64,000 bases of DNA, taken from positions 239,382,001 to 239,446,000 of the forward strand of contig CM097882.1 of the NCBI GenBank assembly GCA_044892505.1. Reading direction: 5' to 3'. Positions 19,928-62,061 of the stretch are shown here, one piece after another. Numbering within the stretch: the stretch's first letter is position 1; each line of letters begins with the position of its first letter. Source of the stretch: Schmidtea nova. Its lineage: Eukaryota. Under the pieces are notes generated by a model that worked only from the letters and a program-made list of their open reading frames with translations, was not told where the DNA came from and ran no database searches. Made by a program: the position numbers and the translations under genes.

Positions 19928-20733
19928 GTCTTCAGTAGGAGGCTATGAGCGGTCCAGATCCACTACCCCCCATGTGTGTATATTACGTAATCGCTCGGAC
20001 TTTACATAGCACACATGATTACGCAATTCTCGGGTTTTAAATAGCACACACGTTATTACGTAATATTTCTCGGCCTTTTACATAGCACACAAATTATGAC
20101 GTCATGATTACGTAATCGAGGTCAAAGGTCAAGGTCATTTCGAGGTCGAGGTCAAGGTCATTTTTTTGTTTTAATTTTAATTTTTTGGCGCAATTTTTGA
20201 ATTTTATTGCCGTTTGTTTAAATAAAGTAAATAATTATTTTTTTGGCGCAATTTTTGAATTTTACCGCATTTTTTTTTTGAATTTTAGTGTAAATTTTTT
20301 GTCGCAATTTTTTGAATTTAAGCGTCATTTTGTTTAATCTGTTGGGCCCACCAATTGGTCTAAAAAGGCAAAAATATTGTACTAATTTAAACAATAAATA
20401 CAAATAATAACCACAAAAAAAAAAAAAAAAAAAAAACATTCGAAAAACCTAAATTAAAAATTAAAATAAAATAATAAATAATAATTACTAAATTTCCAGC
20501 AAAGGAAGAAAATCAAATTGACACGAGAACGAGCAGTATGGGGGTCTGAAATAAGAAAATTACAAATAAAATCAAATAAAAGTACAATTAATTGGTTAAT
20601 TACTTGAAAAATCGAGACCACCCAGCGAGAAATCTGAACCGGAAATTTAAAATGGTTTATATTAAAATAAAATAACAAAATTACTTTGATGGACGGCCTG
20701 ATCCTGATTGGTCAATCTGACCAACTGGATCAG

Positions 20734-20741
20734 TATAAATA
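20734..20741 (+). promoter_or_regulatory. Putative LTR TATA box with upstream CCAAT/ATTGG boxes
   Basis: TATAAATA preceded by GATTGGTCAATCTGACCAAC (~20706-20725); same in all three LTR copies. Confidence 0.45.
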
Positions 20742-21637
20742 CCGATCCAAAAATCATACAGATAACACCTAACAAATTAGTTACCGAACTGATCTATCAT
20801 AGTCAACTTTGATACGATAAATACTGTATAAATTTTTGGAGAACACTGCATCGTGGATTTAAACAGTAAATTTTTTTTTTGTATTGTATTTTGTATTAAT
20901 TTTTATGATATGTTTCATGATTCCCATTTGTTTTATTTTCATTTAATATAATTTATTACTATTGCTCTATTTCTCTTATGCCATTATTTTTATGATATAA
21001 TAAATATACTTCCTCAGTAGCTTACGCTGCGAGGGAGCAAGCCGTAAATGTGGGATTTCACCGTTCCACAAGATGGTGAGCAGAGTTTTTATTAGTATTC
21101 TTTATTTAATTTCATTTTATCGGAAGTTTCACGGTACGGTAAAGTTGTGCAGGGACAAGGACACGAGTAAAATTTGTAGACAGTGGTTAACATTTACATT
21201 CGATCAGACAGGCGAAAACAAAACTATAATATCAATTATCAGGTCGACTAGATCGATTTTTCTCATATACACGCGAATTTTTGTGAATCAACATAGCGGA
21301 TCGAAATAACGTCCGGACACACCGAGACGATTTCGACGTTCCAACTACAGTTTAATTTAGACATAAATAACGACATATTCGGATCGACACTACTGATTAA
21401 ATAAATAAAATCGTAACCTGATCGCTGTACATAGCGCAGGTAATAATAGGTAAATTTTTCATATTCCGATCGCTGTACATAGCGACGGTGTTAATTGAAT
21501 AGTCTGGAAAATATTTTTTTTATTCCTCCTTTTCACATTTTTTTTGTGTTATTGATCAGCGAGCAGAGCACTTTTTTCTCAGGTCTCACCAAAATTTACG
21601 GATTCGTCGCAATAAAATTTATTATTAATTTTCTCAG

Positions 21638-22138
21638 ATGAAAGCAACGATGCTGGATGAATTTCTAACCACTCAACGTCATGTGGCACGGGTCGAAAAT
21701 CCTCTAATCCGGACGCAACGGAAGAAATTGAAGTCGCTCCCACAGGAACTCCTCAGAACGCTAAATGCGTTGATGTATAAATGGAGAAGGGAACTAGGAA
21801 AGAAATGTCCATTTTCGATTTGGACCGGTGGATTGGATACCATCGTATATCGAGGAGGCCCCGGATGGGAAATTCAGGACGAAAGAGACCGGGAGACGAC
21901 AGCTCTGTTCATCATAGTGGTGTCAGACAGCGAAGGAAATCCCACGACAGCGATCCATTGGGGATATGTCTCACCGCTCAAGTTGCTTAAATTCGGGTTG
22001 ATTCCGAATCACCTACCGAAAACGTGCCACGGACGCCCCAAACTAAACTGTTCGATGGCTCACATCCGAAGAAATCCAGTCAATCACGGGTTGCATATTA
22101 CTCCCGTTCACGGCCTCAAGCGAAGTGTTTTCCACTAA
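21638..22138 (+). CDS. LTR-internal ORF1, 166 aa, unknown function (copies at 1503-2003 and 47903-48403)
   Basis: GC-richer open frame in an AT-rich LTR; preceded by ttttctcag|ATG and followed by AATAAA (22175-22180) and a GT-rich tract; intact in all 3 LTRs. Confidence 0.6.
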   Translation: MKATMLDEFLTTQRHVARVENPLIRTQRKKLKSLPQELLRTLNALMYKWRRELGKKCPFSIWTGGLDTIVYRGGPGWEIQDERDRETTALFIIVVSDSEGNPTTAIHWGYVSPLKLLKFGLIPNHLPKTCHGRPKLNCSMAHIRRNPVNHGLHITPVHGLKRSVFH

Positions 22139-22277
22139 ACATTATATTCACATTTTTATAAACTAAACGATTTCAATAAATTAAATGGTGTTGATCCGTG
22201 TTTTTGTTTGTCCTTAGTTAAATTTATTTCTATTTATTTAATCATATGATTTTTACACTCGACGGATAATATTAATC

Positions 22278-22913
22278 TTGGTAACATGTTTGATGCATTA
22301 TAAATTGGGTTTGTTATTTAGTATGACGGAAACTAGCCAACAGCGAGAATTGGACAAGGCGTGGAGAATCCGCCGAGCATTGGAGAAGGAGCTAAACCAA
22401 GAAAAAGCCTTACGAGCCAAAGCAGAAGCTCAGATTCAGCATTTACGGACCAGCTGGTTCGCACCAGCTCGCATGAAGGAGCAGATGAGTCGGACAGAAA
22501 GGGCTCAAAGGACAGCTGACGATTATCGCACCGAATGGGAAGCAACAAAAATTGAGTTGCGCCGATGTCTCCATTCGGTGACGACTTCATTTATCGAGTC
22601 CGAATTGAAAGCACAAATCCGACCCATTACCTACCAGAAATGGGTAGGAGAACAGAAAGTGGCCTGCTCAGTCAGTACGGACACCGATGGACTCGAGGCA
22701 ACCACAGTGCAGAGTCGAGTGGAAACCACCACTGCACCAACTCCCGCCGGAAAACCGAATAAGCGAAAACGAATCGGCTCCAAGCGTCGTCGCCAAAGGA
22801 AGCTGTTTTCTCAGCAATTGCAGACACAAGTAACCACGATGGCAGGAATGTCGGAAGCCGAGTGGTTGGCAGAGATGTTTCCACCTGAAGGAATATTCAA
22901 AGAATTCCTATAA
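22278..22913 (+). CDS. LTR-internal ORF2, coiled-coil protein with basic NLS-like motif (first ATG 22323; copies at 2143-2778 and 48543-49178)
   Basis: Heptad-like N-terminus (RELDKAWRIRRALEKELNQEK) and KPNKRKRIGSKRRRQRK; intact in all 3 LTRs. Confidence 0.6.
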   Translation: MVTCLMHYKLGLLFSMTETSQQRELDKAWRIRRALEKELNQEKALRAKAEAQIQHLRTSWFAPARMKEQMSRTERAQRTADDYRTEWEATKIELRRCLHSVTTSFIESELKAQIRPITYQKWVGEQKVACSVSTDTDGLEATTVQSRVETTTAPTPAGKPNKRKRIGSKRRRQRKLFSQQLQTQVTTMAGMSEAEWLAEMFPPEGIFKEFL

Positions 22914-23411
22914 CAGCTAGAATACGATGTCAGATTGTGGACTTAATTAAAATTTTGCTCGTTTTTGTTTTTTTTTTGTTGTTGTTAATTCCTAAGTATT
23001 TTTCCTTCGATTACATAATTCGTACCATTACCTGTAAATTACCCGTCACACAACGAAAAGAGTAGCGATAAAGAACTTAAATATTATCAAATTCGTAGTT
23101 TCGTTTTGCTTGTTTGTTTTTTGTTTTTACGATAATTACATAACCGCACACACACACACAATAGAACTATAATTGCGTAAGTCCTTCTACGGCCGCGTGA
23201 ACCCGTAAACATAAAGGGGGAGTAGTCCTAGCAATAGTGCTCACCTGCCCCTCATTGTTTAATCACCCTGCGCATCACCAACTTGGTTATCAAGGGAAAT
23301 AATCAAGGGCGCTCGAGTGTAACTTACGACTATTTATGCATGATCATGGATGGAAGATCCCTAGCCGTCATTTGAATTTTTATCAACCCGTCCATGAACC
23401 CAGCATAAATT

Positions 23412-23429
23412 TGGGGGCTCAGCCGGGAT
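23412..23429 (+). other. Primer-binding site, tRNA-Pro-like
   Basis: TGGGGGCTCAGCCGGGAT, 16/18 match to the retroviral tRNA-Pro PBS TGGGGGCTCGTCCGGGAT, 6 nt after the LTR end. Confidence 0.85.
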
Positions 23430-23672
23430 CAACTTCGTTTTATCGGAAAAAGGTGAATGAAAAATCTGCAGAGAAGTTAAAGTGCTCGTGTCGTATGAAT
23501 AAATTTAATAAAAACAGAAAATTGGTAATTAAATCTAAATGATGTACAAAAATAAACAACAAACACAACAGCAAATAAAAGTAAAGTTATAAAAATCGAA
23601 TGCATGCATAAACAATTTGTCGGGACGACAATTTTCGGAAACACGGGGAGAGTAAATAAATGCTAAAAGATG

Positions 23673-23783
23673 CAAAACGAAACATATTACTACTTTAAAT
23701 AAATATTAAATTCACAAAACGAAACATATTACTACTTTAAATAAATATTAAATTCACAAAACGAGACATATTACTACTTTAAA
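23673..23783 (+). repeat. 42-bp tandem repeat x2.6 directly upstream of the RING ORF
   Basis: Unit CAAAACGAAACATATTACTACTTTAAATAAATATTAAATTCA starts at 23673, 23715 and 23757. Confidence 0.9.
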
Positions 23784-23784
23784 A

Positions 23785-24288
23785 ATGATAAAAACAACAA
23801 AGTTAAAACGATTATTTATTCAGCAAATGGAGGAAAAACTGAAAGAAATCGAAGAATTTCTCAACACAGAAAGCGAAACATTAGCAACAATTGGCAAGAA
23901 AATAAACCGATTTAGAGAAATTGAATTTCAAGAACCCACAACACAGACCGAAGAAACAGATGAATTAATAAAGATAACAGAAAGAACAAGTAAAATCGAC
24001 ATAAAAACCCGCTACAAATGGTACCAAGCACGACTAGAGAATGCGGAGCTAAACATTAGATGCAGACAAATAGAACAACAATTAACCCCAACATACAAGC
24101 GATGGAGGGCGCAAGGGGTAGAAGCAGCGAAAAAATACCGACAGTGCTATATATGTGAAAACAACGAGATACAAATTATGTTTTTACCTTGCGGACATTT
24201 CCGTTTTTGTAAGATCTGTGCCAGCAAGTGTGACCGGTGTCCGATGTGCAACTTTACCGTGAATGAAAAAATTATAGTTTATTTGTAA
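23785..24288 (+). CDS. Coiled-coil + C-terminal C3HC4 RING protein (IAP/MDM2-type RING, no BIR), 167 aa (copy at 3650-4153)
   Basis: CYICENNEIQIMFLPCGHFRFCKICASKCDRCPMC at 24145-24249, close to the C-terminus. Confidence 0.85.
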   Translation: MIKTTKLKRLFIQQMEEKLKEIEEFLNTESETLATIGKKINRFREIEFQEPTTQTEETDELIKITERTSKIDIKTRYKWYQARLENAELNIRCRQIEQQLTPTYKRWRAQGVEAAKKYRQCYICENNEIQIMFLPCGHFRFCKICASKCDRCPMCNFTVNEKIIVYL

Positions 24289-24770
24289 TAAATGTTTAGA
24301 GTTGATTAGTAAAAGATCGAATGGTGAATCATGGGAACAATCATTGTATTTAAATAATTTTTGAGCTACTGCAAAGTAGTCCGATAAGAATCCATTGGGG
24401 GGTACCGATTGATCAACCTAGTCAGGGTATATAGAAAGGGGCCCATCGCAAATGTTGGAAAGTTTTTGTGATGTGATTGATCACCACATCCTGCATTAAT
24501 AGACCAACGCGATCTTTGTGTATATTTTGGTTGGGGAGAGAGATAGGGAAATCTCGATGGAGTAAAGCGCGCATAGAGAAAAATAAATAAAAAGTTGAAG
24601 CAGACTGATCAGGAATTAGTTATGATAGAACAAAGAGATAAATGACAATTTTGAGAGAATAAAAGGTGCATAGTCAGCTCGCATAGAAGTAGTTATAACT
24701 CAGCTGAGAAGTTTTAATCGCTAGCGAAGTAGGGAATTGTGATTAACCGGTTAAGTAAAGTTATACGAGA

Positions 24771-24853
24771 TTTGTCCCTTGAAACAAAGGGTTATTAGAG
24801 TTGTCCCTTGAAACAAAGGGTTATTAGCGGTTTGTCCCTTGAAAAAAAGGGTT
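24771..24853 (+). repeat. 3 x ~30-bp tandem repeat containing a CCCTT-N6-AAGGG inverted repeat
   Basis: TTGTCCCTTGAAACAAAGGGTT(ATTAG) three times. Confidence 0.9.
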
Positions 24854-24904
24854 GAGGCCAACGAGCCTTATTGAATGACCTAGCTAGGCGTTATGGAGAG
24901 ATTA

Positions 24905-25084
24905 ATTGAGGCCAATAGAGCCAGTGAGATATTAAATTAAGGCCAATAGAGCCATGTGAGATATTAAATTAAGGCCAATAGAGCCATGTGAGATATTAAA
25001 ATTGAGGCCAATAGAGCCATTTGAGATAGTAAAATGAGGCCAATAGAGCCATGTGAGATATAAAATTGAGGCCAAAAGAGCCAT
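24905..25084 (+). repeat. 6 x ~31-bp tandem repeat carrying CCAAT boxes; possible internal promoter
   Basis: Unit ~ATTGAGGCCAATAGAGCCATGTGAGATATTAA; five units have GGCCAATAG, the sixth GGCCAAAAG. Confidence 0.85.
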
Positions 25085-25694
25085 AGTGGATTATAGAGAT
25101 ATCCGGATAAATAGTAACAGAGGGAATATAGACCCATAGTGTAATCGTCGACGAGATTTAGAATAGTGCGCACTAGTAGTTAAGAAATGCGAGTAAAGCT
25201 GATTATGCAACCTTAAGTAAAGCATGCAAGGAGAATAATAAAAATTCGAGCTGACCGGAGCAACCGGCAGAATGAGTAAAACGATTGCTAGCAGGGAATA
25301 ATGAATAAAGATGATAAAATAATGATAAACGAGTCAGAAAGACTCAGGGAATTAGAGCGCTCGAGCGACCAATAAATTGGGAAACTGTGGGAAAAGTAAT
25401 GGATTTGATAAAACATAGATAATTATTACGACATAAATAGATAATTGTGACCAGTCTATAGATAATTTAAATAGACTAAAAATAAAGGGGAATCTGGGAA
25501 TTGGGAAATAATGAAAACCCAGTAATAAGTAATCCCGAAAGAAAGGGAATAAAAGCGCGACGATAACAATAAGGTATCGTTGAGGACCTTTGTATTTTAG
25601 ATATACAAATCAATCAAATCAATCAAGCAACAAGAAGAATCAGAAAAACGATAATAGATAGGACAAGAAAATTGATAATATAAAAGTAATCCAG

Positions 25695-28600
25695 TTGAGA
25701 AAAGGAGCAAAGAGTGTCGCAATAAAGCCAACAAAAAAGCAGAAAGCCGGCAAAGATAACCACAAAAACCCACAAGGGAGTAAAGCGAGGAAAATAATAA
25801 GAGATAAATCAATTATCGAAAACGATAAATTGTCAGTAGTAAGCAACAGCTCAAGTAACAAAGAGAACCAAGCGGAACCCAAGGAGAACCAAACAAGCGA
25901 AATAGAAAGCGACGAAACTATCAACGATAATATCGAAGAAGTAGAAAACGAGGTAGAACCAGAGGTAGAAACCAACGAAAGTGATAACGAAAGTATAATA
26001 TCAGATAACGAAGGAATAAGAGAAACAGAAAGCGATTCAAGCTCGAGTGGAACAGAAGACGAACATAACAACGAACTAGAAACAAGAGGAAACGAAAGTA
26101 AAATAACTCAAGACAGCGGAATTGAAATGGGTGAACCAAGAGAAGAAATAAAGGATAAATTTTCAGGAGAACCGTTTAACGGAGATGCGAGTAAATTGGA
26201 AATTTTTCTAAAGGAATTTGGCATATTCGTGGAAGTATGCAAATGGAAAGCTGAGACAACAGCAAGTAGAATACAGTTATATTTGAAAGATAGTGCATTG
26301 GACCTATATTTGGAAGCGAAAAATGGTACCAATCCACCTACAAGCTGGTCAGCGATAAAGGATTTTTTCCAGCAAACATTTGGAATAAATAAAGTGCTAA
26401 GCGAAGCATTCATAGAATTTTCGATGAGAAAACAAAAGATGAATGAGTCTAACGCGGTATACGCGAGCGAACTGAAAAAATTAGCAAAATCGGTATTCAA
26501 GGATGGGGGTCCAATAAACGAGGAATTAATGGCAGCCATCTTCATAGGAGGATTAAGAAGACCCGACATAAGAGCGCAAGTTGGATGCCAAGGATGCAAA
26601 ACCATAGACCAAGCGTTAGAGACAGCTAACCGATTTGAATTACATATGATAGGAAGCGAGGGTAGAATTTATTTAGCCATGGACACAGCACAAACCGAAC
26701 CAGAGGTAAATCTCAACAATCACATTCCAAATTCGCAACAATTAAACCGACCACCCCCTCAACGAAGGAATGAAGGAAATAAAGTGCAGAACTTTGGAAA
26801 CCAAAACAATTACCACCCTCAAGGACAAACAAAACAATGTAAAACATGCGGGAAGTTGGGACACTGGCAGCAAGAATGCTACCAAAATTTGAATTGCGGA
26901 AAATGTGGAGTTAAAGGACACTCGGAAAGTAGATGTTCTACAATAATCTGTTTTAATTGCGGACGACCTGGTCACTACTCAAGGAATTGCGGACAAAAAG
27001 GTAATCAACGGGGAAATTGGCAGAACAACGGAAACCGACCAAATTACGGAAATCAAACAAATACTGCAAATCGACAAGATTATGGCAACCAACAGGTCAA
27101 TAATAACAATAATCAGAACAAAACTACCACCAAAGAAATACATTTGATGCAAGAAGTTCAAAGATTGACGGAACTTATAAACAATACGACGAGAGGGAAC
27201 CCGCAAACCAATCAACAACAAATTAGCATGATGAGAAAAATAGAAAGCGAAAACGAACGATTGAATCGAGAAAGTCAAGCACGACACGCTCAGGAATGGG
27301 CAAGAATACAAAGAGAGGATGAACAAAAACAGCAAGAAAGAGAACGACAACCTCTAAGAATTAACATGCTAAGAGCAACAAACCAAACAGACACTCGCGA
27401 GAAAGAAACCACACTGGAAATGAATTCGATAGACCCGAATCCAGCCGACAACGAAAGTCGAAAAGAAATAGTACAAAAAGATGAGGAAGTAGAAAAAGAA
27501 GTAGAAAAGGAAGCGGAAACTGAGATAAACCAAGAAGAGAGAAGAAAAATTTGGAAAAAAGGAATGATGGTAATCATGCCCAACGACCATGTGTTTCGAT
27601 TCCAATATAACGCAAAAGAAAAGGTGGAAATACTATTCAATAAAGTAAACCAGATGATTCCAGGAGTAACGAAACTGCCCAGAGAAGCGTTCTTACAAAT
27701 AGGAGATGCACCATCAGTAAAATTGAAATTAACGGATATATGGGAAAACATGGGAGTAACAGAGACAAAAAGAAATGTGATGAGAATCAAAGAAATAGAA
27801 TCAGAAGAAATTCCACCACCAGTGCGTCACGAAACCCGAATCAGCCGAATATTTAAAGGAAAAATGATACGAAGACGTTTGAAAGAAATAGACGAGTTAG
27901 AGAAGAAAATGAGAAAAGTCGAAGTAATAGAGGATAAGAGTGAACCAACACTAGAGATTGCCAAAAACGAACCAGAACCAACGGAGAATATACAAGGGGA
28001 AACGAACCAAATAGCTCATATTAGTATGTTAAGAAATACCACCAGAGAGTTTTCCGATGAAGAAGAAGATAGCGACATCAGTAGCCTAGCAGGAGACATA
28101 TTAAACGAATCCGAAGACGAAAATAAAGAGAGAGAAGTAATAAAGACCTCAGAACCTACACAGATAAAAGTAGATGAAATCCAGAAATTACTAGATAACT
28201 CGTTAGAAGTAATATATAACGAAGAGTTCATGGACAAGAAACAATATCGGAAATTCATGAAAGCATTATTACAAATGAACTACAAAGATTGGTTACAAGA
28301 CCGGGAAGTGGACATGTTAAATCGATACGTAGGGAAATTAATAGAGGAACCACTCCTCAATTACACTATCTCAATAATAATAAATACATCTACACCAAGA
28401 ATCTGGATCAAAACTCCATTTACAGACGATATCTACAGATGGGTAGAGGATAGACTAGGGAGCTCATATAAAAACAAATTCATCTATTCGCAGAATAGAC
28501 TCGTAAAGAAAAGAACGCACTTAGTAGAAACAGGTATATGGCCAGGAGAAATAACTCTGTTATCAATATGTGATGAGAAGGAAGAAGAGAACCTACAAGA

Positions 28601-31600
28601 AGTTGCAAGGGAAGCAAACACGTGCTTTGAAAGGAGAATAAAACCCCGGTTAGAATACGAGAAAGAACGAGTCTTACGAAAGAATCTAAATTCCCTGATA
28701 GAACAAATCATACCACAAGTCAAAAAACATAGAAAAGAGTTAATGAGAAGCGAATACGAGAAACTGAAACGATGTATTGAGTGCATACGTGACACAAGTC
28801 ACACGAGATGGTCACAAATCTCACACGACAAATTAATCGCAAAAATGGGAAAAACAATGTTCAGACAAGGGAAAATAACAGACCTAAAAATTTCAGTGGA
28901 ATTGCCTAATGAAGACACCAAAGAAATTGAAGTAGTAGCGGATTGCACCATTAAAGAATTAATAAATGTCATCAACGAGACACTAGTGCAAAGAGAACCA
29001 GAAGACGAATGGGAAGACGACATAATCATACAATATAACGAACATGTATTATGGGATCACGATGAGAGACGACTATATAAAATCGGTATATGGGATAATC
29101 ACCAAACCATCCACGTTATCAGAATGGACGATACACCCAGAGAAACTGCTAAAGATGAGAAAAGAGAACGGGAACGACGGAAAGAAGTTGTGCGCAAATT
29201 ACAACAAATAGTAGAAATTTATCGAAATTGGCGAATTTGGCCAGAGTGGGAAAATGTATTAGAAGAACTCAATCTCAACAGACGAATACGAACACCCATA
29301 GAAAAACAATGGAACGAGAAAGGAAAATGTTGGGAACCAAAAGAAGGGGAATATGAAGAAGAATATGAAAGAGGAATGGAAGATGACTGCGAACCAGAAA
29401 TGAGAAGGGTTTGCATGGTGACAAGGAAAGCTACGCCAATAGACCTAGATGGACCAGAAACAGCGGCTATATGGGTAGAAAAGGAAAAGCAAAAAACGGA
29501 AGAATTTGTCGAAATATTAAAAACTAATGCGCACGGTAAGAGAAAAATAATAAAAGGTCTCGCAGATTTTTTCGTGGTTAATGGAGAAGATATAACATGC
29601 TTACGCAAAGTAGCAAAAGCAATCGCAGAATATAAAAGAGTCAACGAGTGGTGCCCGGAACAACTAGACCATGTAATTAGGAAATGGAGAAACCAAGAAT
29701 TCTCGCAGGAAATTCCACAGAAAGTGCATTTAAGAATAATATATCCAAACAAGGATAAGGAAGAATTGTGGGTAGGAATAGCAGAAAAAATTCGAGATAT
29801 TAAAAAGAAATTGAGATACGAACCACCATTCCATTTACAACACCAAGGACGATCATTAGATAACAGTTTGGAAATCAGAATAACGCCAGCACAACTAGAT
29901 CTCATGAATACCTTGACAGTAGAAGCAATAGCAGGTCAACCATTGAAACGTAAAGAAGAAAACCATAAACCACACGGAAGTATAAGTACGCCGAGCCCGA
30001 TGAAATCAGTACTAACACCAGGGACAAGTTCAAGACGATCTGAGACAACACCCAGAGGGAATAGAGAAATGACTCCACCACAACCATACGACGTGGACGA
30101 AATTTTAACGGATAGCGACGATATGATAGAAGAATTAACCGAATTAACAAAAGAAAAAGACGATAACATTTTCGAAAGAATACAAGAATTACCTACGACA
30201 ATACAAGTAACCAACACCGGAGAAACAGAAGTCGAAGAAGAAATAATAATAGAAGAAATAAACGATTTGATAGAAGACGAAGCGAGAGGGACGAATGTCG
30301 AAAATGTACAATTAACCCAAGAAATGGAAAGATGGTTAGAAGAAAGAGCTAACGAACCAAGAGATGTCACGGAAGAAACAGGACGAGCAACAAGATTTGT
30401 GGAAACGGTTACAGGAATGGATAGACGACCTCGAGGTAGACCCAAGACAGATCCGGCAAATGTAGTCATCAGAAATAAGGATGAAAAGAGACAAGATCAA
30501 TGGGAAGTATGTTTAAAGAAATTAAATAAAATCGCGGAGATAAAAGAAAAAGAGACAACACCAATATGTCAAGGTGAGGAATGGATATCGAAAACAATAA
30601 TGGAAATATTGGCAATAATTGATCCGGAATTGAAAAAATACTGGCGTATAACTGAGATAAGCGAAAAGGCGAAGTCATTGCACAGCGCAATTGCACCCAT
30701 CTTACCGGAATTCATAAAAGTAAAGACGAAGTCAAATCATTTAGACTGGCAAGGAACCACTACGTTAATAAAGAAATTGACAGAAGGAGCGGAAACAGAT
30801 AACAAATACGTGATAGCCATTGCATACACCATCTACAACCTACTAACACTGAGTAGAGGTCGACCAAAACCCACTGCGTTGGAAAGACACATAAAAAATA
30901 CCGCAAAAATTATAGCCAGAGAAATAGAACCATACATCATTAACAAAGGAGGATGGGAAACATTTATAAAAACTAACCAGAAGAAAACGCAAGCCAAGAA
31001 TATGAAAAAGAAATTCGAAAAAATATTGGAAGAGTTAGAAAAAGAACAAGCAGGAACAGGAAACGCGAAGTCATCAATGAATTTGAGTTCTATAATAATG
31101 ATGATGTTGATATGGATGATTAGCACCGATAGCGCAACAGCATTCGAAGTGTTTGATTGCGACCAAATGAAGTTAGGAGAAAAGTATTCATTGAGAGGTA
31201 CGGAGCAATGCAAAGATGCAACTCCAGTAGAGTTGCAAAAGATTAAAAAGGAACAATGGTACCACGTGTATCAAGAAGCAGAACTCATAAAGACAATGGT
31301 GAATGAATGTAAGGTGCAGAAGACAAGATTCGCATTCTACTGCGGGAGAGGACATTATTCAGCAATTGTCATGCCAGGAACGGAAAGAGAACCAATCGTG
31401 TTACAAGGAGAGGACTGCGAAGCATTGTTTAAACATGGAGAAGTAACAACAAGAGATAAAATCAAGATAAAAGGAAAGCCAGGAATGATGATGCAACAGA
31501 CGTACTATGTAGCAGGACGGATTACGGGAGGAGAAGGATATTGTCAAGGAGAAACCTACCCGATGTTCGGAACACTCGCAACCAACTTAGTGGTGATGGA

Positions 31601-46384: not shown

Positions 46385-46565
46385 ACTTTGTGAACATCTC
46401 TGATGAACCTTTAACTATCCTGTGACAATAATCTGATAATATTCAACTATCCTATAACAAATCTCATGATGTGTATAAATTCTATCACCCTAAGTGATTT
46501 TCTTGTGTTTATGTATATATCTGTAAAACTTTTTATGTATGATGTTATAAGTAGTTATGTATAAT

Positions 46566-46601
46566 TAATTGCGGGACGCAATTTTAGGGGTCCCCGAGTG
46601 A
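46566..46601 (+). other. Atypical polypurine-tract region upstream of the 3' LTR
   Basis: AATTGCG-GGA-CGCAATT hairpin, then TTAGGGGTCCCCGAGTGA before TG; only a short AGGGG purine run. Confidence 0.5.
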
Positions 46602-49600: not shown

Positions 49601-49670
49601 ATGCATGATCATGGATGGGAGATCCCTAGCCGTCATTTGAATTTTTATCAACCCGTCCATAAACCCAGCA
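46602..49670 (+). repeat. 3' LTR (3069 bp)
   Basis: By eye differs from the 5' LTR at about 4 substitutions and 2 homopolymer lengths; followed by TSD AATC. Confidence 0.96.
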
Positions 49671-49719
49671 AATCAAAGTAAATTTTTAGCGCAATTTTCA
49701 AAAGTTTTAAATAATTTTT

Positions 49720-49831
49720 TTTTATTTTATTATTTTATTTAATATTATTTTTATTACTAATAATATTTTATAAGTATTATTATTTTATTTAATATTATTT
49801 TTTTATAATTATTTTTTTATTACAATTAGAA

Positions 49832-49875
<44 letters not shown>

Positions 49876-49958
49876 CTTTTATTATTAATTTTATTACAAT
49901 TATTAATATTACAATTATTATTATTATTATTATTATTACTATGATTATTTATTACTAA

Positions 49959-49989
<31 letters not shown>

Positions 49990-49990
49990 C
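49720..49990. repeat. Imperfect (ATT)n microsatellite (mirror (AAT)n at ~61325-61620)
   Basis: Runs of attattattatt. Confidence 0.9.
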
Positions 49991-52009
49991 TATATCAAGG
50001 AAAGAGAAGACAAGATAAAGAACATGTGCTTTAATATTGCCAGTCCTAAAGAGCGGTGATTAAATGCCTGTGCCTAAAAGACACGCTGGGCAAGTAATCG
50101 CGTCCACAAAGGTCGTCGGTGCCTCCCCCAAAGTGGGGTCAATAGGACCTGGGCATCAATAGTTCGCTATCTATAGCGATCACGTCTCGGATAATCAAGG
50201 GTAGCCAGCTACCAAGACATCATCTACAACGTAGTGTTTCATACGCCATGAATGTGTCGGCAAGTTATCGTCATAGACACTAATGACCGAATTTAATTAA
50301 TATGTTGTCAAAAAATAAGCAAACATCGCAGAGGCCTCCAATTTGGTTGGATTACGGTCGCCCACCACAACGACTGGCATGCTTCGAAAAAAATAAAGGG
50401 TGAAAACAAACCCACCCACCCTAATATATTTTAAAATAAAAAACAAATTAAATTTTTCTCTTCTTTTTGTCCTCAAGCATCTAGTTTTATCTAAAATTAA
50501 TAAATAATTTAATTTTCAAATAAATTACCAGTCCCAAAAGTTTCTTCCGGCTCGTTGAAATAATTATCTAAAATAAAATTATTAATAAATATCATATTTG
50601 TTTTAATTAATTGTTTGTACTGAAATACATTTATTTAAAAAAAAAACTATTACTAATTTAACTAAACATTATTTAAATTATTAGTTTACACTGAAATACA
50701 AAATGTTTTCTAAAATAATTACTTAAAGTTAAATTAATCTTGTTTAAATTATTTATTTTCCTTAAACTGCGGAAATTTAAAATATTTATAAAAAGTTAAT
50801 TTAAAATTATTAAGTTTAATTATTATAAAATTTACTAATTAAATTTGTTTTAATTTATTGTTTGCATTAAAATGCATTTATTTAAAAAATAATAACAAAA
50901 TTTACTAAAATACAAAATTAAATTTAAATTAGCAAAACTAAAAGTAATTTGTTTAATTCCTATTAGTGTAAAGATTTAATAAAATAAAAAGTCAATTTAA
51001 AATTAATGCTAAGATTAATTATTATTAAATTGACTAATGAAATTTGTTGTGATAATAATTCCCTTAAAAATGTAAGAATTTGAAAAAATTATACTTAATT
51101 ACAAAAATTAGCTAAAATATTACACAAATAATTTATGTTAATCTTAATCTTAATTTAATTACTTTAAAATAAAAATACTTACATAACCGATTTTGAATTT
51201 TTTCCTCCATATATTAAACATTTCATCATACCTAAATTATCTAAATTAAAAGTATATTTATAAATAAAAAATAAACTTACAATTATCCAATTTCATTTAA
51301 AATAACATCTAAATAAAAAGTAATTAATTAGTTAAAAATTAAAAGATTTCTTACTCTTAATTTTGAATTTCATCTAAAATAAAATAATTAATTTGAAATA
51401 ATAAAACAAAAAGACTTACTTGATTAATTTATTATTTAAAAAGTTTTTACTTAAGCTTTGCATTAACCTAAATTAAACTTATAAATTAATGTAAACTATA
51501 ATATAACTTTGAAAATTTTTATTTAAACTATAATTTGTAATATAACTTTGAAAATTTTTATTTAATTTACAATCTAACTTATATTAAGATTTTAGAGTTT
51601 GTAATAAATTTTATTTTAACTTTAGATTTAATTTTAGATTTAGTTGAACTGTCTAATTTTGATGAAAAAATAGGAGTTTTTCATTGAACTTTTAATAAAA
51701 ATGGTTCTTGAATGACTAATTATTATCAGTTAAACATGTTGGAGTATGTAAATCTTACGTCCAATGGCTATATTTATGTGTTTTTTATCAAACATTCAGA
51801 CTAATTTGATCGGAACCCCGTGTATCAATGTTGATGGCGGCATCTTATTACATGGAATTTAATGGGTCATAGATGATATCGACATATTAACGGTTGTTGA
51901 ATTTTAATGGATGGGTTCGTAATTGTACTATATTTAATATTTTATATACAAATTAACATACACGTGTGTTTTTTAATCAAACATTGGGATTAATTTTATC
52001 GGATTTGGG

Positions 52010-52325
52010 AACCAGATGGGTCAAAGCTGATAGGTAAATGGTACTATATTATTACATGAGATGCGATGGGTGAAAATGGATAGGCGAATGACGCTATCTT
52101 GGAATGTGATGGGACAAAGCTGATAGGTAAATGGCGTCATCTTATTACTTGGAATGTGATGGGATAAAACTGATAGGTAAATGGCGCTATATTAATAATG
52201 TGATGGGTGAAAATGGATAGGCGAATTACGCTATCTTGGGAACCAGATGGGTGAAAACTGATAGACAAATTGTACTATCTTATAACATGGAATGCGATGG
52301 GTCAAAACTGATAGAATAATGGCGG
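52010..52325. repeat. Minisatellite with core GATGGG..AAA(A/G)CTGATAG(G)TAAATGG (mirror ~58985-59310)
   Basis: About 7 degenerate units visible; boundaries approximate. Confidence 0.75.
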
Positions 52326-53699
52326 TATCATTGGGTATATCACAGTTATAGTATAAAGTTTTATTGGATGGAATCGTAATTGACAGGTAATTTAGTTAGT
52401 AATTTATGTGTAAATAAGAGGGATTTCTTAGTGAAAACATACCTGTTTAGGGTTTTTGTGCTTATTTTTTAGTAAACATTTTGTCGTTTTTAGTAGTATT
52501 TGGCAACAGTTGATAACAAATACTGGTTTTTGGAGTAAATCGATGAGGTTAATGGAATAAATTGCACACACTATCAAATGCATTGATTCAATAATGACCA
52601 CAAGTGGTAACATTTCTCAGAATTTTCTAAAATATTTCCAATAATAATAAGGCAAGGTCAGTGGGTGTATACGAGAAATGATTGTGACCTGTATGAGACA
52701 TGTGTGAATTATTCATGATATGCCTTTGTTGAGGTGCATGCCTATGTGAGTCACTTCATGTTTGTTGTACTCGTATTTCATGCAAATTGTTTTAATAATA
52801 TCCCGAAATTTTAAAATTAACCAGTGAAATATTTTTAATAAAAACTTTAAAAAAAAAGACAAATTGACTGATTTATTAATTATACACATTACATGTGAAA
52901 TGATATTTTCCCAACTCCTTCCTCAAAATGATAAGTCGTCAACAGATCAATGCAGATTTTACATTTTACATAAGATCGATCCCAGTTGACATCCATATTC
53001 GAAATGGTATAATCTCTGGAGTTCAATATATTCTTTTAATTGATAAAGCTCTTGGATATTAAAATTTTCATCAGTTTTTCTAAAATTCAACTTTAAAATG
53101 AAAATAATTAAAAGTTTTCATTTGATGTTAAATTTGACAATCTAAAATTAAATGGTAATTTGTTATACATATATAATTTGAAAAAATATTGAATAAATGT
53201 GCCCAAAACAATGCAGATGGGTTTTTAATCATCAAAATTCTGCTACTAGGGTTCTGGTACTCATTAACTTTGTTAGTCAGGTAAAGGAATTACATTTGTT
53301 GAAGTAAATCAGAGTAAATATTGTCTTATTTGATATGTGTTAAAATGATAGTTTACTGGGTAACATGAGCATTTCTAGCAAGGTAGCATTTTTATCATGG
53401 ACATTATCAAATATAGTGAAATTCATGTGATCATACATTGGTTTGAAGATAAGCTCAAAAACCATCACAAATAGGTTATGTTACCAAATGTTCTGCTATC
53501 AAGGTTTATGATATCATTTTATAGTAAAAAATTATCAATTTTACTTTAAAAAAAGTATATTTCTTATTAAAAATATGTTCAAGTGAAAAGCCTTTGGGAT
53601 CAAAGACCATCACATAAAGGGTTCTGTTACCAAAGATGCTGTTATCAAAGTTCTATCACTATGATAAATAAATGACTAAATGCATCACACGATACTGGG

Positions 53700-54720
53700 T
53701 GCGTAAATACACATGATAAATTATCATAATATAGAAATCATTACATACAAAATATTTTATACAGTATAGTACAAACATACACACACGCAAAATATATAAA
53801 ATTTTATGACATACAAACAAATTATCATCACATTATAGTGCAAAACACACATGAAATATCATTACATACAAGAATTACACACAAAGGATATCATCACATA
53901 CATACAAAATAAACACACACATACAAAGTCGAATCACAAAATGTCATCATACTATAGTGTAATAGCATCTAAAATACATCAAAAATATACAAAATATCAA
54001 AAATACATAGAAAATCAACAAAGATGCACAAAAATATCAAGAATACATAGAAATTCATCACACATATAAATATTATCACATATATGAAGTATCATCACAA
54101 AATTTTATCATACTATAGTTCTAAAACATAGAAAATATATCACAAATCAACAAAGATACACAGAAAATATCAAAATTACAGAGAAATTCATCACCCACAC
54201 AAAATATCATCACATATATAAAATATCATCACAAAATGTCATCATACTTTAGTGCACTAACATTGAAAATACACCAAAAATCATCAAAAGTACACACAAA
54301 ATATCAGAAATATTTAGAAAATTATCAAGAATTGCAAACAAAATATCAAGAATACATAGAAATTCATCACATACACACAAATCATCAAAAATACACAAAA
54401 TATCCAAAACACATGAAAATCATCAAACATACACACAAATTATACATAGAAATTCATCACACATACAAATATTATCACATATATGAAGTATCATCATCAT
54501 ACTATAGTTCTATAACATAGAAAATATATCGAAAATGAACAAAGATACACAGAAAATATCAAAAATACAGAGAAATTCATCACACACACAAAATATCATC
54601 ACAAAATGACATAGAAAACACATAGAAAACACAGAAAGCATATAAAAAAAATACAAAGAAAATCATCAAAAATACAGATAAAATATCAAAAATACAGAAA
54701 ATTATCACATACATCAGAAA
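53700..54720. repeat. A/C-rich low-complexity degenerate tandem repeat (mirror ~56620-57640)
   Basis: Recurring aaatatcatcacacatac / agaaattcatcac units; ~400-bp internal duplication (54070-54220 vs 54470-54600). Confidence 0.75.
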
Positions 54721-57700
54721 TTATCATTGAAATATTATGAAAGTGTACGGAAATATTGTGAAATGTATGTTCAAGTAGGAAGCTTTCAAACCTATCACAA
54801 TTTGTGTCTGTTACTGGATAAAACTGAAACATTGTGATAATGTAATTGATTAAAGATCATAATGGATTATGTTAATGAATAATGTTGATTGTAACAATAA
54901 TAACTATATGTGGGAGTAATAAGCTTTGGCAGATAAAAACCATCACAAAAGAGGTTCTGCTAATAAAGGTTCTGATAGAAAGGTTCATTATTCACTTTAA
55001 CAAATAATAAACATTTAAAATGAACATTATAACAAGTTTTATGAACGAAAACCCAAGTGGAAAAGAAAATGGTAAATTTATTTTTTAATTTAATATCATT
55101 TAGTATTAATTTAGGTAATATCAATAATTCGATATCAATAAATATCAATAAATCGATGTTAGAAAATGCGGAAGAAAATGGTATTTGATCATTAACTTAG
55201 TAAATTATTTAACTTTTACTTTAGGTGATGTAAATATGACTGGACAAACTACCGTACAAACTAAGATTGTTAATAATGAGAATATTATGAATAATGGAGT
55301 TATTACTGATGTGATATTGAATGCCCAATGTAAGCATTGATTAATCTTAATTATTTTAATTATATTTTGATAATTATTTTAATCAATTTAGTAAATAAAT
55401 ATAGTAAAATATTTGTAAATATATATTTTTGGTAATATTTTGTAATAATTTAAATAATCTTTACTTTACGTAAACAGTTAATTTAAACAAATTCATTTAA
55501 TATTATTTTGTAATAATTTTTATATTAAATTTAAATTATTTTAGTAATTATTATATTTAAATCATATTTATCTTAAATTTCATATTTATTTTTTGATAAA
55601 TTTAAAGATATTTCATATTAAGGTAAATTTTATGCGAATTATTGTAAGTCGTCAAATCATAACGACTGCCACAAGTTAATGGAGCGATACTATTGTATTA
55701 TAAATAATCATTAAGATAAATTATTAAAAATATGAATTATTAGAAAATAAATATGAAATTTAAGATAAATATGATTTAAATATAATAATTACTAAAATAA
55801 TTTAAATTTAATATAAAAATTATTACAAAATAATATTAAATGAATTTGTTTAAATTAACTGTTTACGTAAAGTAAAGATTATTTAAATTATTACAAAATA
55901 TTACCAAAAATATATATTTACAAATATTTTACTATATTTATTTACTAAATTGATTAAAATAATTATCAAAATATAATTAAAATAATTAAGATTAATCAAT
56001 GCTTACATTGGGCATTCAATATCACATCAGTAATAACTCCATTATTCATAATATTCTCATTATTAACAATCTTAGTTTGTACGGTAGTTTGTCCAGTCAT
56101 ATTTACATCACCTAAAGTAAAAGTTAAATAATTTACTAAGTTAATGATCAAATACCATTTTCTTCCGCATTTTCTAACATCGATTTATTGATATTTATTG
56201 ATATCGAATTATTGATATTACCTAAATTAATACTAAATGATATTAAATTAAAAAATAAATTTACCATTTTCTTTTCCACTTGGGTTTTCGTTCATAAAAC
56301 TTGTTATAATGTTCATTTTAAATGTTTATTATTTGTTAAAGTGAATAATGAACCTTTCTATCAGAACCTTTATTAGCAGAACCTCTTTTGTGATGGTTTT
56401 TATCTGCCAAAGCTTATTACTCCCACATATAGTTATTATTGTTACAATCAACATTATTCATTAACATAATCCATTATGATCTTTAATCAATTACATTATC
56501 ACAATGTTTCAGTTTTATCCAGTAACAGACACAAATTGTGATAGGTTTGAAAGCTTCCTACTTGAACATACATTTCACAATATTTCCGTACACTTTCATA
56601 ATATTTCAATGATAATTTCTGATGTATGTGATAATTTTCTGTATTTTTGATATTTTATCTGTATTTTTGATGATTTTCTTTGTATTTTTTTTATATGCTT
56701 TCTGTGTTTTCTATGTGTTTTCTATGTCATTTTGTGATGATATTTTGTGTGTGTGATGAATTTCTCTGTATTTTTGATATTTTCTGTGTATCTTTGTTCA
56801 TTTTCGATATATTTTCTATGTTATAGAACTATAGTATGATGATGATACTTCATATATGTGATAATATTTGTATGTGTGATGAATTTCTATGTATAATTTG
56901 TGTGTATGTTTGATGATTTTCATGTGTTTTGGATATTTTGTGTATTTTTGATGATTTGTGTGTATGTGATGAATTTCTATGTATTCTTGATATTTTGTTT
57001 GCAATTCTTGATAATTTTCTAAATATTTCTGATATTTTGTGTGTACTTTTGATGATTTTTGGTGTATTTTCAATGTTAGTGCACTAAAGTATGATGACAT
57101 TTTGTGATGATATTTTATATATGTGATGATATTTTGTGTGGGTGATGAATTTCTCTGTAATTTTGATATTTTCTGTGTATCTTTGTTGATTTGTGATATA
57201 TTTTCTATGTTTTAGAACTATAGTATGATAAAATTTTGTGATGATACTTCATATATGTGATAATATTTATATGTGTGATGAATTTCTATGTATTCTTGAT
57301 ATTTTTGTGCATCTTTGTTGATTTTCTATGTATTTTTGATATTTTGTATATTTTTGATGTATTTTAGATGCTATTACACTATAGTATGATGACATTTTGT
57401 GATTCGACTTTGTATGTGTGTGTTTATTTTGTATGTATGTGATGATATCCTTTGTGTGTAATTCTTGTATGTAATGATATTTCATGTGTGTTTTGCACTA
57501 TAATGTGATGATAATTTGTTTGTATGTCATAAAATTTTATATATTTTGCGTGTGTGTATGTTTGTACTATACTGTATAAAATATTTTGTATGTAATGATT
57601 TCTATATTATGATAATTTATCATGTGTATTTACGCACCCAGTATCGTGTGATGCATTTAGTCATTTATTTATCATAGTGATAGAACTTTGATAACAGCAT

Positions 57701-60700
57701 CTTTGGTAACAGAACCCTTTATGTGATGGTCTTTGATCCCAAAGGCTTTTCACTTGAACATATTTTTAATAAGAAATATACTTTTTTTAAAGTAAAATTG
57801 ATAATTTTTTACTATAAAATGATATCATAAACCTTGATAGCAGAACATTTGGTAACATAACCTATTTGTGATGGTTTTTGAGCTTATCTTCAAACCAATG
57901 TATGATCACATGAATTTCACTATATTTGATAATGTCCATGATAAAAATGCTACCTTGCTAGAAATGCTCATGTTACCCAGTAAACTATCATTTTAACACA
58001 TATCAAATAAGACAATATTTACTCTGATTTACTTCAACAAATGTAATTCCTTTACCTGACTAACAAAGTTAATGAGTACCAGAACCCTAGTAGCAGAATT
58101 TTGATGATTAAAAACCCATCTGCATTGTTTTGGGCACATTTATTCAATATTTTTTCAAATTATATATGTATAACAAATTACCATTTAATTTTAGATTGTC
58201 AAATTTAACATCAAATGAAAACTTTTAATTATTTTCATTTTAAAGTTGAATTTTAGAAAAACTGATGAAAATTTTAATATCCAAGAGCTTTATCAATTAA
58301 AAGAATATATTGAACTCCAGAGATTATACCATTTCGAATATGGATGTCAACTGGGATCGATCTTATGTAAAATGTAAAATCTGCATTGATCTGTTGACGA
58401 CTTATCATTTTGAGGAAGGAGTTGGGAAAATATCATTTCACATGTAATGTGTATAATTAATAAATCAGTCAATTTGTCTTTTTTTTTAAAGTTTTTATTA
58501 AAAATATTTCACTGGTTAATTTTAAAATTTCGGGATATTATTAAAACAATTTGCATGAAATACGAGTACAACAAACATGAAGTGACTCACATAGGCATGC
58601 ACCTCAACAAAGGCATATCATGAATAATTCACACATGTCTCATACAGGTCACAATCATTTCTCGTATACACCCACTGACCTTGCCTTATTATTATTGGAA
58701 ATATTTTAGAAAATTCTGAGAAATGTTACAACTTGTGGTCATTATTGAATCAATGCATTTGATAGTGTGTGCAATTTATTCCATTAACCTCATCGATTTA
58801 TCAACTGTTGCCAAATACTACTAAAAACGACAAAATGTTTACTAAAAAATAAGCACAAAAACCCTAAACAGGTATGTTTTCACTAAGAAATCCCTCTTAT
58901 TTACACATAAATTACTAACTAAATTACCTGTCAATTACGATTCCATCCAATAAAACTTTATACTATAACTGTGATATACCCAATGATACCGCCATTATTC
59001 TATCAGTTTTGACTCATCGCATTCCATGTTATAAGATAGTACAATTTGTCTATCAGTTTTCACCCATCTGGTTCCCAAGATAGCGTAATTCGCCTATCCA
59101 ATTTCACCCATCACATTATTAAAATAGCGCCATTTACCTATCAGTTTTATCCCATCACATTCCAAGTAATAAGATGACGCCATTTACCTATCAGCTTTGT
59201 CCCATCACATTCCAAGATAGCGTCATTCGCCTATCCATTTTCACCCATCGCATCTCATGTAATAATATAGTACCATTTACCTATCAGCTTTGACCCATCT
59301 GGTTCCCAAATCCGATAAAATTAATCCCAATGTTTGATAAAAAACACACGTGTATGTTAATTTGTATATAAAATATTAAATATAGTACAATTACGAACCC
59401 ATCCATTAAAATTCAACAACCGTTAATATGTCGATATCATCTATGACCCATTAAATTCCATGTAATAAGATGCCGCCATCAACATTGATACACGGGGTTC
59501 CGATCAAATTAGTCTGAATGTTTGATAAAAAACACATAAATATAGCCATTGGACGTAAGATTTACATACTCCAACATGTTTAACTGATAATAATTAGTCA
59601 TTCAAGAACCATTTTTATTAAAAGTTCAATGAAAAACTCCTATTTTTTCATCAAAATTAGACAGTTCAACTAAATCTAAAATTAAATCTAAAGTTAAAAT
59701 AAAATTTATTACAAACTCTAAAATCTTAATATAAGTTAGATTGTAAATTAAATAAAAATTTTCAAAGTTATATTACAAATTATAGTTTAAATAAAAATTT
59801 TCAAAGTTATATTATAGTTTACATTAATTTATAAGTTTAATTTAGGTTAATGCAAAGCTTAAGTAAAAACTTTTTAAATAATAAATTAATCAAGTAAGTC
59901 TTTTTGTTTTATTATTTCAAATTAATTATTTTATTTTAGATGAAATTCAAAATTAAGAGTAAGAAATCTTTTAATTTTTAACTAATTAATTACTTTTTAT
60001 TTAGATGTTATTTTAAATGAAATTGGATAATTGTAAGTTTATTTTTTATTTATAAATATACTTTTAATTTAGATAATTTAGGTATGATGAAATGTTTAAT
60101 ATATGGAGGAAAAAATTCAAAATCGGTTATGTAAGTATTTTTATTTTAAAGTAATTAAATTAAGATTAAGATTAACATAAATTATTTGTGTAATATTTTA
60201 GCTAATTTTTGTAATTAAGTATAATTTTTTCAAATTCTTACATTTTTAAGGGAATTATTATCACAACAAATTTCATTAGTCAATTTAATAATAATTAATC
60301 TTAGCATTAATTTTAAATTGACTTTTTATTTTATTAAATCTTTACACTAATACGAATTAAACAAATTACTTTTAGTTTTGCTAATTTAAATTTAATTTTG
60401 TATTTTAGTAAATTTTGTTATTATTTTTTAAATAAATGCATTTTAATGCAAACAATAAATTAAAACAAATTTAATTAGTAAATTTTATAATAATTAAACT
60501 TAATAATTTTAAATTAACTTTTTATAAATATTTTAAATTTCCGCAGTTTAAGGAAAATAAATAATTTAAACAAGATTAATTTAACTTTAAGTAATTATTT
60601 TAGAAAACATTTTGTATTTCAGTGTAAACTAATAATTTAAATAATGTTTAGTTAAATTAGTAATAGTTTTTTTTTAAATAAATGTATTTCAGTACAAACA

Positions 60701-60939
60701 ATTAATTAAAACAAATATGATATTTATTAATAATTTTATTTTAGATAATTATTTCAACGAGCCGGGAGAAACTTTTGGGACTGGTAATTTATTTGAAAAT
60801 TAAATTATTTATTAATTTTAGATAAAACTAGATGCTTGAGGACAAAAAGAAGAGAAAAATTTAATTTGTTTTTTATTTTAAAATATATTAGGGTGGGTGG
60901 GTTTGTTTTCACCCTTTATTTTTTTCGAAGCATGCCAGT

Positions 60940-61322
60940 CGTTGTGGTGGGCGACCGTAATCCAACCAAATTGGAGGCCTCTGCGATGTTTGCTTATTTT
61001 TTGACAACATATTAATTAAATTCGGTCATTAGTGTCTATGACGATAACTTGCCGACACATTCATGGCGTATGAAACACTACGTTGTAGATGATGTCTTGG
61101 TAGCTCGCTACCCTTGATTATCCGAGACGTGATCGCTATAGATAGCGAACTATTGATGCCCAGGTCCTATTGACCCCACTTTGGGGGAGGCACCGACGAC
61201 CTTTGTGGACGCGATTACTTGCCCAGCGTGTCTTTTAGGCACAGGCATTTAATCACCGCTCTTTAGGACTGGCAATATTAAAGCACATGTTCTTTATCTT
61301 GTCTTCTCTTTCCTTGATATAG

Positions 61323-61353
<31 letters not shown>

Positions 61354-61366
61354 GTAATAAATAATC

Positions 61367-61410
<44 letters not shown>

Positions 61411-61448
61411 TGTAATATTAATAATTGTAATAAAATTAATAATAAAAG

Positions 61449-61500
<52 letters not shown>
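60940..61500 (+). mobile_element. Possible SINE/LINE 3' fragment ending in a (TAA)n tail (mirror ~49850-50390)
   Basis: GC-richer ~380-bp island ending directly in TAATAATAA repeats; no coding motif recognised. Confidence 0.3.
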
Positions 61501-61504
<4 letters not shown>

Positions 61505-62061
61505 TACTAATTGTAATAAAAAAATAATTATAAAAAAATAATATTAAATAAAATAATAATACTTATAAAATATTATTAGTAATAAAAATAATATTAAATA
61601 AAATAATAAAATAAAAAAAAAATTATTTAAAACTTTTGAAAATTGCGCTAAAAATTTACTTTGATTAAACAAAATGACGCTTTAATTCAAAAAATTGCGA
61701 CAAAAAATTTTAACTAAAATTCAAAAAAAAAATGCGGTAAAATTCAAAAATTGCGCCAAAAAAATAATTATTTACTTTATTTAAACAAACGGCAATAAAA
61801 TTCAAAAATTGCGCCAAAAAATTAAAATTAAAACAAAAAAATGACCTCGACCTCGAAATGACCTTGACCTTTGACCTCGATTACGTAATCATGACGTCAT
61901 AATTTGTGTGCTATGTAAAAGGCCGAGAAATATTACGTAATAACGTGTGTGCTATGTAAACCCGAGAATTGCGTAATCATGTGTGCTATGTAAAGTCCGA
62001 GCGATTACGTAATATACACACATAGGGGGTAGTGGATCTGGACCGCTCATAGCCTCCTACT

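Follow-up and report, generated by a model that had tools for sequence, protein, structure and literature searches.

The 64,000-nucleotide window analyzed here (positions 239,382,001 to 239,446,000 of contig CM097882.1, Schmidtea nova assembly GCA_044892505.1) contains a palindromic, fold-back element, a genuine and young insertion that holds no genes, has ends of the Polinton type and is unusual in the length of its arms. Self-comparison of the window reveals it as a 12-kb inverted repeat at 49671-61666 and a second inverted match of 407 bp, 19933-20339 versus 62062-61663. The element starts with AGTAGG at 19934 and finishes with CCTACT ending at 62061, and it is flanked at both ends by GTCTTC, a 6-bp target-site duplication; a chance match of six flanking bases has a probability of about 4e-4. 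Its full coordinates cover 42,128 bp, the left arm being interrupted by a 29,331-bp long terminal repeat (LTR) retrotransposon. The features of the element and its target gene, in window coordinates, are as follows.

19310-19927, minus strand: 3' part of the target gene, whose reading frame continues that of the right flank on the other side of the insertion
19928-19933, plus strand: left target-site duplication GTCTTC
19934-20339, plus strand: outer piece of the left arm, carrying the AGTAGG terminus, subterminal repeats of 35 bp that contain TTACGTAA, a single TGACGTCA, repeated AGGTCA and a pair of E2F-like sites (motif counts taken from the right-arm copy)
20340-49670, plus strand: nested 29,331-bp retrotransposon, Burro-like by architecture and of the Gypsy type, with the 4-bp duplication AATC, in the left arm only
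49671-52606, plus strand: remaining diverged outer part of the left arm, with a TTA microsatellite, AT-rich DNA and a 46/93-bp tandem array
52607-55592, plus strand: inner left arm (2,986 bp), which matches the right arm base for base (100%) and contains a 134-bp tandem array
55593-55743, no strand: unique spacer of 151 bp
55744-58729, minus strand: inner right arm, without differences from 52607-55592
58730-62061, minus strand: outer right arm, diverged, which holds the retrotransposon's empty site (a single AATC near 61663-61666) and the CCTACT terminus
62062-62067, plus strand: right target-site duplication GTCTTC
62062-63472, minus strand: 5' part of the target gene, which is decayed and whose family has a domain resembling RNase_T (DEDD exonuclease-like)

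Without the nested retrotransposon, the net length of the element is 12,793 bp. The left arm comprises 6,324 bp (19934-20339 plus 49671-55592, minus the 4-bp duplication), the right arm 6,318 bp (55744-62061), and the unique spacer between them 151 bp (55593-55743), such that the arms, at 6.3 kb each, account for 99% of the element. The initial annotation of this DNA had described the AGTAGG and CCTACT termini, a 6-bp target-site duplication, a size of 12.8 kb with arms of about 6.3 kb and a 151-bp spacer, and arm differences that include 22-bp and 6-bp indels; the recomputed values agree throughout, and the two indels are located near 52535 and 20154, respectively.

The right arm and spacer have a G+C content of 24.5%, and tandem repeats constitute 25% of the right arm. 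The terminal 430 bp contain three copies of TTACGTAA, one of TGACGTCA, four of AGGTCA and two E2F-like sites, each count being reached in 0-4 of 1,000 shuffles. These patterns were picked after viewing the sequence, the counts partly reflect tandem repeats, and the enrichment shows only that the end is organized like a regulatory terminal inverted repeat (TIR). A packaging repeat of the adenovirus type was rejected as a candidate in the same 430 bp: there are two copies of its pattern, TTTG-N8-CG, a number reached in 61 of 1,000 shuffles. The observed/expected CpG ratio exceeds 1.1 in the outer 2 kb of the arm and is mostly 0.2-0.8 further inward, a shift that suggests a true TIR-like end joined to filler from another origin. 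A motif of about 50-110 bp (53455-53671 and 54898-55007, 72-81% identity) has two copies ahead of the 134-bp tandem array and one behind it. The arm shows no similarity to the rest of the window, comparisons for older nested palindromes or miniature inverted-repeat transposable elements within it gave low-identity AT-rich matches only, and Rfam gave 0 matches at E 0.1 over 46000-64000. Neither the GC-richer segment at 50010-50300 (z -0.88) nor the spacer (z 0.14) folds unusually well compared with shuffles, and alignments of the spacer to the arms are not significant, giving no sign of which arm is parental.

No protein family was detected by Pfam or PHROG in any of the six stop-masked frames of the right arm plus spacer. 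Stop-to-stop open reading frames (ORFs) of at least 45 codons number 38, of which 32 were scanned singly against Pfam; six of the 32 gave weak matches, none at the curated cut-off and none Polinton-related. The six ORFs outside the single scan are five of low complexity (microsatellite region, 61318-61681) and one in the flank. The longest stop-free run, 131 codons, lies inside the 134-bp tandem array, and 1 of 200 local shuffles reached that length. Genes for a protein-primed polymerase (pPolB) and a retroviral-like integrase found no match in the six frames or the 32 scanned ORFs, and those for a capsid, packaging ATPase and protease no family match in the six-frame scans, in line with the initial annotation, which had reported no pPolB, integrase or capsid ORF. 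With no core genes, 6.3-kb arms and a 151-bp interior, the element is not an autonomous Polinton/Maverick, and its lack of genes supports dependence on a helper.

The termini carry AG at every third base (AGT AGG AGG), and repeats of this kind in end motifs have been tied to jumping-back protein priming (PMC8097293). In the supplement of that study AGTAGG occurs 37 times; among the 36 occurrences considered here, 35 are 5' motifs (25 from tuatara, 9 from axolotl and 1 from gharial), and 27 of these 35 rows, from tuatara and axolotl and all designated 'fossil', pair with CCTACT. The exact AGTAGG//CCTACT pair with 6-bp duplications is tabulated there for Mavericks, which supports the Polinton-type ends proposed in the initial annotation. 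Many of the 27 rows carry INT and pPOLB, and five have perfect duplications with no core gene modelled (arm structure is not tabulated); gene-poor, Maverick-ended loci are thus already on record. AGTAGT (713) and AGAGAG (339) are far more frequent motifs in the same supplement. The supplement of PMC10748475 contains no terminal motifs, and the terminal 22 nt have, as expected, 0 matches in prokaryotic genomes. The element shows both terminal characters of a Polinton/Maverick derivative, the 6-bp duplication and the AG-type repeated end motif. The Repbase rule calls for terminal alignment with a classified member over positions 1-11 (PMC4455052), of which the Maverick table gives six bases.

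The insertion is real, and the element has split an old, already decaying gene. In the right flank, the most open minus-strand frame contains a single stop in 414 codons, against 38 and 30 in its two same-strand alternatives; in the left flank the corresponding figures are 3 stops in 205 codons against 16 and 20. The two open frames are in phase after removal of the element and one copy of the duplication. Homology covers the right flank only. A single gene was thus interrupted, and the outer arms, of which only one carries the Gypsy, are two separate pieces of DNA. The family of the target gene comprises 37 relatives identified by phmmer, the best full-length ones being 515-609 amino acids long. 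RNase_T was found in 1 of 12 scanned relatives, Atlas matches give RNase_T at 0.86, which is at the level of a lead only, and the target gene itself has no match in the 90% protein set, PDB or Pfam. Its domain is degenerate and RNase_T/REX4-like, and the gene may belong to another mobile element. A primer-binding-site-like sequence, recognized by eye in the left flank at 18355-18385 on the plus strand, is possibly from another LTR element.

What kind of element would combine Polinton-type ends with a gene-less palindrome? The reading that we favor, with moderate confidence, is a non-autonomous Polinton/Maverick-type element that a helper integrated and in which fold-back, in more than one step, extended or homogenized the arms. 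Several observations weigh against it. The motif match is one of 6 nt, drawn from vertebrates and not from a partner in the same genome, whereas the host is an invertebrate. A single copy is seen, the 16-nt terminal pattern being exact only at the two ends within the window. The 6.3-kb arms are four times the longest TIR among 134 intact vertebrate Mavericks, where TIRs are 46-1,447 bp (PMC8097293), and Polinton TIRs are generally 100-1,500 bp (PMC10748475). The spacer has no template-switch signature, 33-240 of 300 shuffles having scored equally well, and in the left flank a test for C-terminal homology fell short of significance (best iE 0.34). Window positions 1-16827 repeat 20136-36964 with 4 differences and end at a 500-N gap, which is followed by a second assembly gap of 156 N. 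To these is added the distribution of differences between the arms.

Comparison of the arms gives 20 independent differences, 12 substitution events and 8 indels, with a microsatellite cluster treated conservatively. All 20 fall in the outermost 3,332 bp. The remaining 2,986 bp toward the center match exactly, with 0 of 20 events in the inner 47% of 6,318 bp. A test of even placement gives a p value of 2.8e-6 (4.6e-4 for substitutions alone), and a difference-free gap of this length anywhere in the arm arose in 15 of 200,000 simulations of all events and 1,214 of 200,000 of substitutions alone. Divergence is 0.39% in the outer arms, 0.13% between the LTRs of the nested Gypsy and 0 in the inner arms; for the last two, 0 differences in 2,986 bp compare with 4 substitutions (or 6 events) in 3,066 bp, with p values of 0.066 and 0.017, respectively. 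The outer-arm substitutions are mostly transversions (3 transitions in 13 bases) and those of the LTRs are 4 of 4 transitions (Fisher p 0.015, without composition correction), a contrast that may reflect different mutational histories.

The initial annotation took the arm differences to argue against a trivial inverted-read artefact. This holds for the outer 3.3 kb, where the two arms are physically distinct and their differences vouch for them, but not for the inner 2,986 bp, which the differences do not cover, and the center of the element is less secure than its ends. The same annotation proposed a one-step copy-back of the end of an autonomous Polinton, a proposal that is weakened on two counts. 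A young product of that kind would be expected to diverge evenly along the arms and to carry remains of genes in the 6.4 kb next to the end; divergence is uneven, and the complete lack of such remains over 6.4 kb speaks against a parent dense in genes. Three histories fit the arms: a second fold-back or arm-to-arm conversion in a real palindrome, a chromosomal break repair that replaced the interior, and an assembly effect, the last either as harmless mixing of reads in the consensus or as a chimeric shortcut behind which the true interior is hidden. Common to all three are inverted arms no shorter than 3.3 kb and a stretch of 6.4 kb from an end that contains no gene.

Break repair in situ would imply that the element, when first inserted, had a longer interior between TIRs of 3.3 kb or more, and that a later break was repaired by fold-back synthesis along one arm, replacing the interior, in which case the palindrome never moved as a unit. 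The polarized divergence described above favors such a history, and the greater similarity of the inner arms than of the Gypsy LTRs hints that homogenization came after the Gypsy insertion. However, the LTR comparison is marginal, differences between LTRs can arise during reverse transcription, and the parent must still have lacked genes over the 6.4 kb next to one end; we regard this history as unlikely. Long palindromes are places where assemblies fail, and the base identity of the inner arms over 2,986 bp would also be produced if the ends and outer arms were real but the center came from fold-back chimeric reads or amplification chimeras, with the true interior, possibly including genes, missing. 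The repeat at 1-16827 points in the same direction; it contains 204 bp of the left arm of the fold-back, interruptions near 13.2 kb and 14.5 kb disrupt its long ORF, and it is probably a false assembly duplicate, the alternative being a second composite copy. Yet a chimera would have to turn at the spacer, rejoin the diverged right arm without the Gypsy and enter the correct flank, whereas a mirrored Gypsy and flank, expected from simple fold-back of reads, are not present, and consensus mixing of reads from both arms of a real palindrome would give the same identity. A missing interior is, in our view, quite unlikely.

The insertion site can also be parsed with CAGTAG ends and a 4-bp duplication, TCTT, an option that exists because the duplication begins with G and finishes with C, and the element might then derive by fold-back from a cut-and-paste DNA transposon, or be FB-like and belong to another superfamily. 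Formally the two parses are equal, and the tandem-repeat-rich arms resemble those of foldback elements. AcademX, an example of such a transposon, makes 3- or 4-bp duplications (PMC10045372). It is the 6-bp parse, however, that yields an end pair attested in Mavericks, and two tuatara loci are tabulated in both forms, as AGTAGG with a perfect G....C duplication and as CAGTAG (PMC8097293 supplement); genuine Mavericks with G...C duplications thus give the same false CAGTAG parse, and the 4-bp version here would be this known off-by-one effect, which weighs against it. Among shifts of -3 to +3 bases no further parse gives an inverted end plus duplication, and the longest exact duplication among the parses tried, with up to 12 bp allowed, is 6 bp. 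A cut-and-paste origin is accordingly considered very unlikely. That the whole element is an artefact, or a chance palindrome without mobility, has the identical inner arms in its favor and nothing else; set against the target duplication, the in-frame flanks, the Gypsy insertion in one arm and the 20 outer-arm differences, it is barely credible.

How might a palindrome without genes be replicated and integrated? As a non-autonomous Polinton/Maverick-type element, it would keep only cis-acting ends and AT-rich, repeat-rich filler, with polymerase and integrase supplied by a helper. The palindrome would have formed by copying of one end back on itself, with template switching near the 151-bp spacer. 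The displaced single strand would snap back to form a duplex end that a protein-primed polymerase could reuse as an origin, and no gene would therefore be needed in cis. Once the palindrome was nearly complete, its strand would re-form the duplex origin at once and each arm would then be copied unchanged, and so the arm differences could predate the present insertion. The older arms, of at least 3.3 kb, would already have been about 0.4% diverged before the inner 3 kb were duplicated or homogenized, whether by a second fold-back, by arm-to-arm conversion or, in the assembly, by consensus mixing. The linear DNA would then have been integrated by the integrase of an autonomous Polinton, generating the 6-bp duplication and splitting the decaying gene, and the Burro-like Gypsy was inserted afterwards, about 400 bp from the left end. 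At its present 42 kb, this copy is probably no longer mobile. In the published Polinton model, a racket-shaped single strand is copied by pPolB and then integrated (PMC4196379), and Schmidtea has Polintons, which are piRNA-silenced (PMC8532177). The element would work like a snap-back, helper-dependent genome.

A more speculative and doubtful extension of the Polinton reading is that the element represents a natural 'gutless' Polinton family of self-annealing hairpin or palindrome replicons, consisting of origins and filler, that are amplified by the protein-primed polymerase of a helper and re-integrated. The 6.4-kb end doubled to 12.8 kb would then approximate the smallest intact Mavericks, and fold-back may have been selected for packaging. 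Such a family, if true, would provide genomic evidence for a free single-strand panhandle intermediate, and possibly for virions. That Polintons replicate by way of a protein-primed intermediate which forms a panhandle is a sequence-based model (PMC4196379), and a gene-less palindrome with Polinton ends, were it multi-copy, could hardly be accounted for unless such an intermediate existed; it would also define the minimal cis-acting ends and offer a size test of packaging. Gene-based Polinton surveys that start from INT and pPOLB matches (PMC8097293, PMC10748475) would miss such a gene-less class. As a single assembled copy, the element is an unusual non-autonomous transposon.

The nested Gypsy (29,331 bp, 20340-49670, plus strand) has 3.07-kb LTRs and the duplication AATC, of which the right arm keeps a single copy as the empty site. 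It is apparently intact, and its LTRs are 99.8% identical, so that it was recently active. One ORF of 5,649 codons (25662-42611) encodes gag, a CCHC knuckle, a Monjiviricetes-type fusion protein, protease, reverse transcriptase, ribonuclease H, integrase and ankyrin repeats, with a long uncharacterized C-terminal part; the best matches of the reverse transcriptase are 37-52% identical. A tRNA-Pro-like primer site, recognized by eye, follows the 5' LTR. The other ORFs of the Gypsy are listed below.

21629-22138, plus strand: LTR ORF of 169 codons, repeated in each LTR, no Pfam family above cut-off
22242-22913, plus strand: LTR ORF of 223 codons, repeated in each LTR, no Pfam family above cut-off
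23752-24288, plus strand: RING ORF, IAP-type-looking, upstream of the long ORF
42736-43095, plus strand: accessory ORF, no family above cut-off
43190-44569, plus strand: TRAF-family gene (zinc fingers and MATH) downstream of the long ORF, best matches 24-36% to animal TRAFs
44657-45745, plus strand: accessory ORF, no family above cut-off
45785-46384, plus strand: accessory ORF, no family above cut-off

Burro, a giant Gypsy of planarians (PMC6431247), shares with this insert a length of about 30 kb, a single polyprotein with gag, an in-frame env-like fusion protein, the protease to integrase domains and ankyrin repeats, and a TRAF/MATH accessory gene, but the insert differs in its 5,649-codon ORF, 3.07-kb LTRs and downstream position of the TRAF gene. 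The one-ORF gag-env-pol-ankyrin organization, the TRAF/MATH gene and the size of about 30 kb make it Burro-like by architecture, and a triclad flatworm is accordingly a plausible host. Pfam scans of the insert gave no BCL2-like or BIR match, a further difference from Burro.

The fold-back can be compared with several known systems. Foldback (FB) elements are non-autonomous and have very long tandem-repeat arms, little or no interior, 9-bp duplications and other ends; the element resembles them in its very long tandem-repeat arms and small interior, but has a 6-bp duplication and AG ends. The yeast linear plasmid pGKL1 gives rise to hairpin or inverted-dimer derivatives in which one end is copied back, and these are helper-dependent. 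They keep parental coding sequence and are free molecules, whereas the fold-back is integrated, has no coding remnant and has uneven arms. Non-autonomous Polinton families are listed in Repbase. In our literature search, which had most subscription journals and Repbase outside its coverage, none of the papers listed dealt, in its title or the opening of its abstract, with a palindromic Polinton lacking genes.

With Polintons/Mavericks (PMC8097293, PMC10748475) the element shares the AG-type ends, exactly AGTAGG//CCTACT as in tuatara and axolotl Mavericks, and the 6-bp duplication. Its net length is at the low edge of the 12,723-24,620 bp range of intact elements, and it differs in having no pPolB, integrase, ATPase, protease or capsid gene. 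Snapback defective genomes of adeno-associated virus (AAV; 10.1101/2020.10.20.346957), in which one end is copied back to give a near-perfect, helper-dependent palindrome, differ from the fold-back in the same respects as the plasmid derivatives. Among butterfly polintons there are polB-less forms that are apparently mobile, and TIRs of 2 kb (10.1101/2025.02.07.637071). Those of Pieris and Euchloe have enlarged inverted repeats, polymerase loss, transposon cargo and apparent continued mobility, but unlike the fold-back, with no gene and a unique interior of 151 bp, they keep core genes, some of them inside the approximately 2-kb TIRs. These butterfly polintons are the nearest precedent found for the element, and the AAV snapback genomes its nearest viral analogue.

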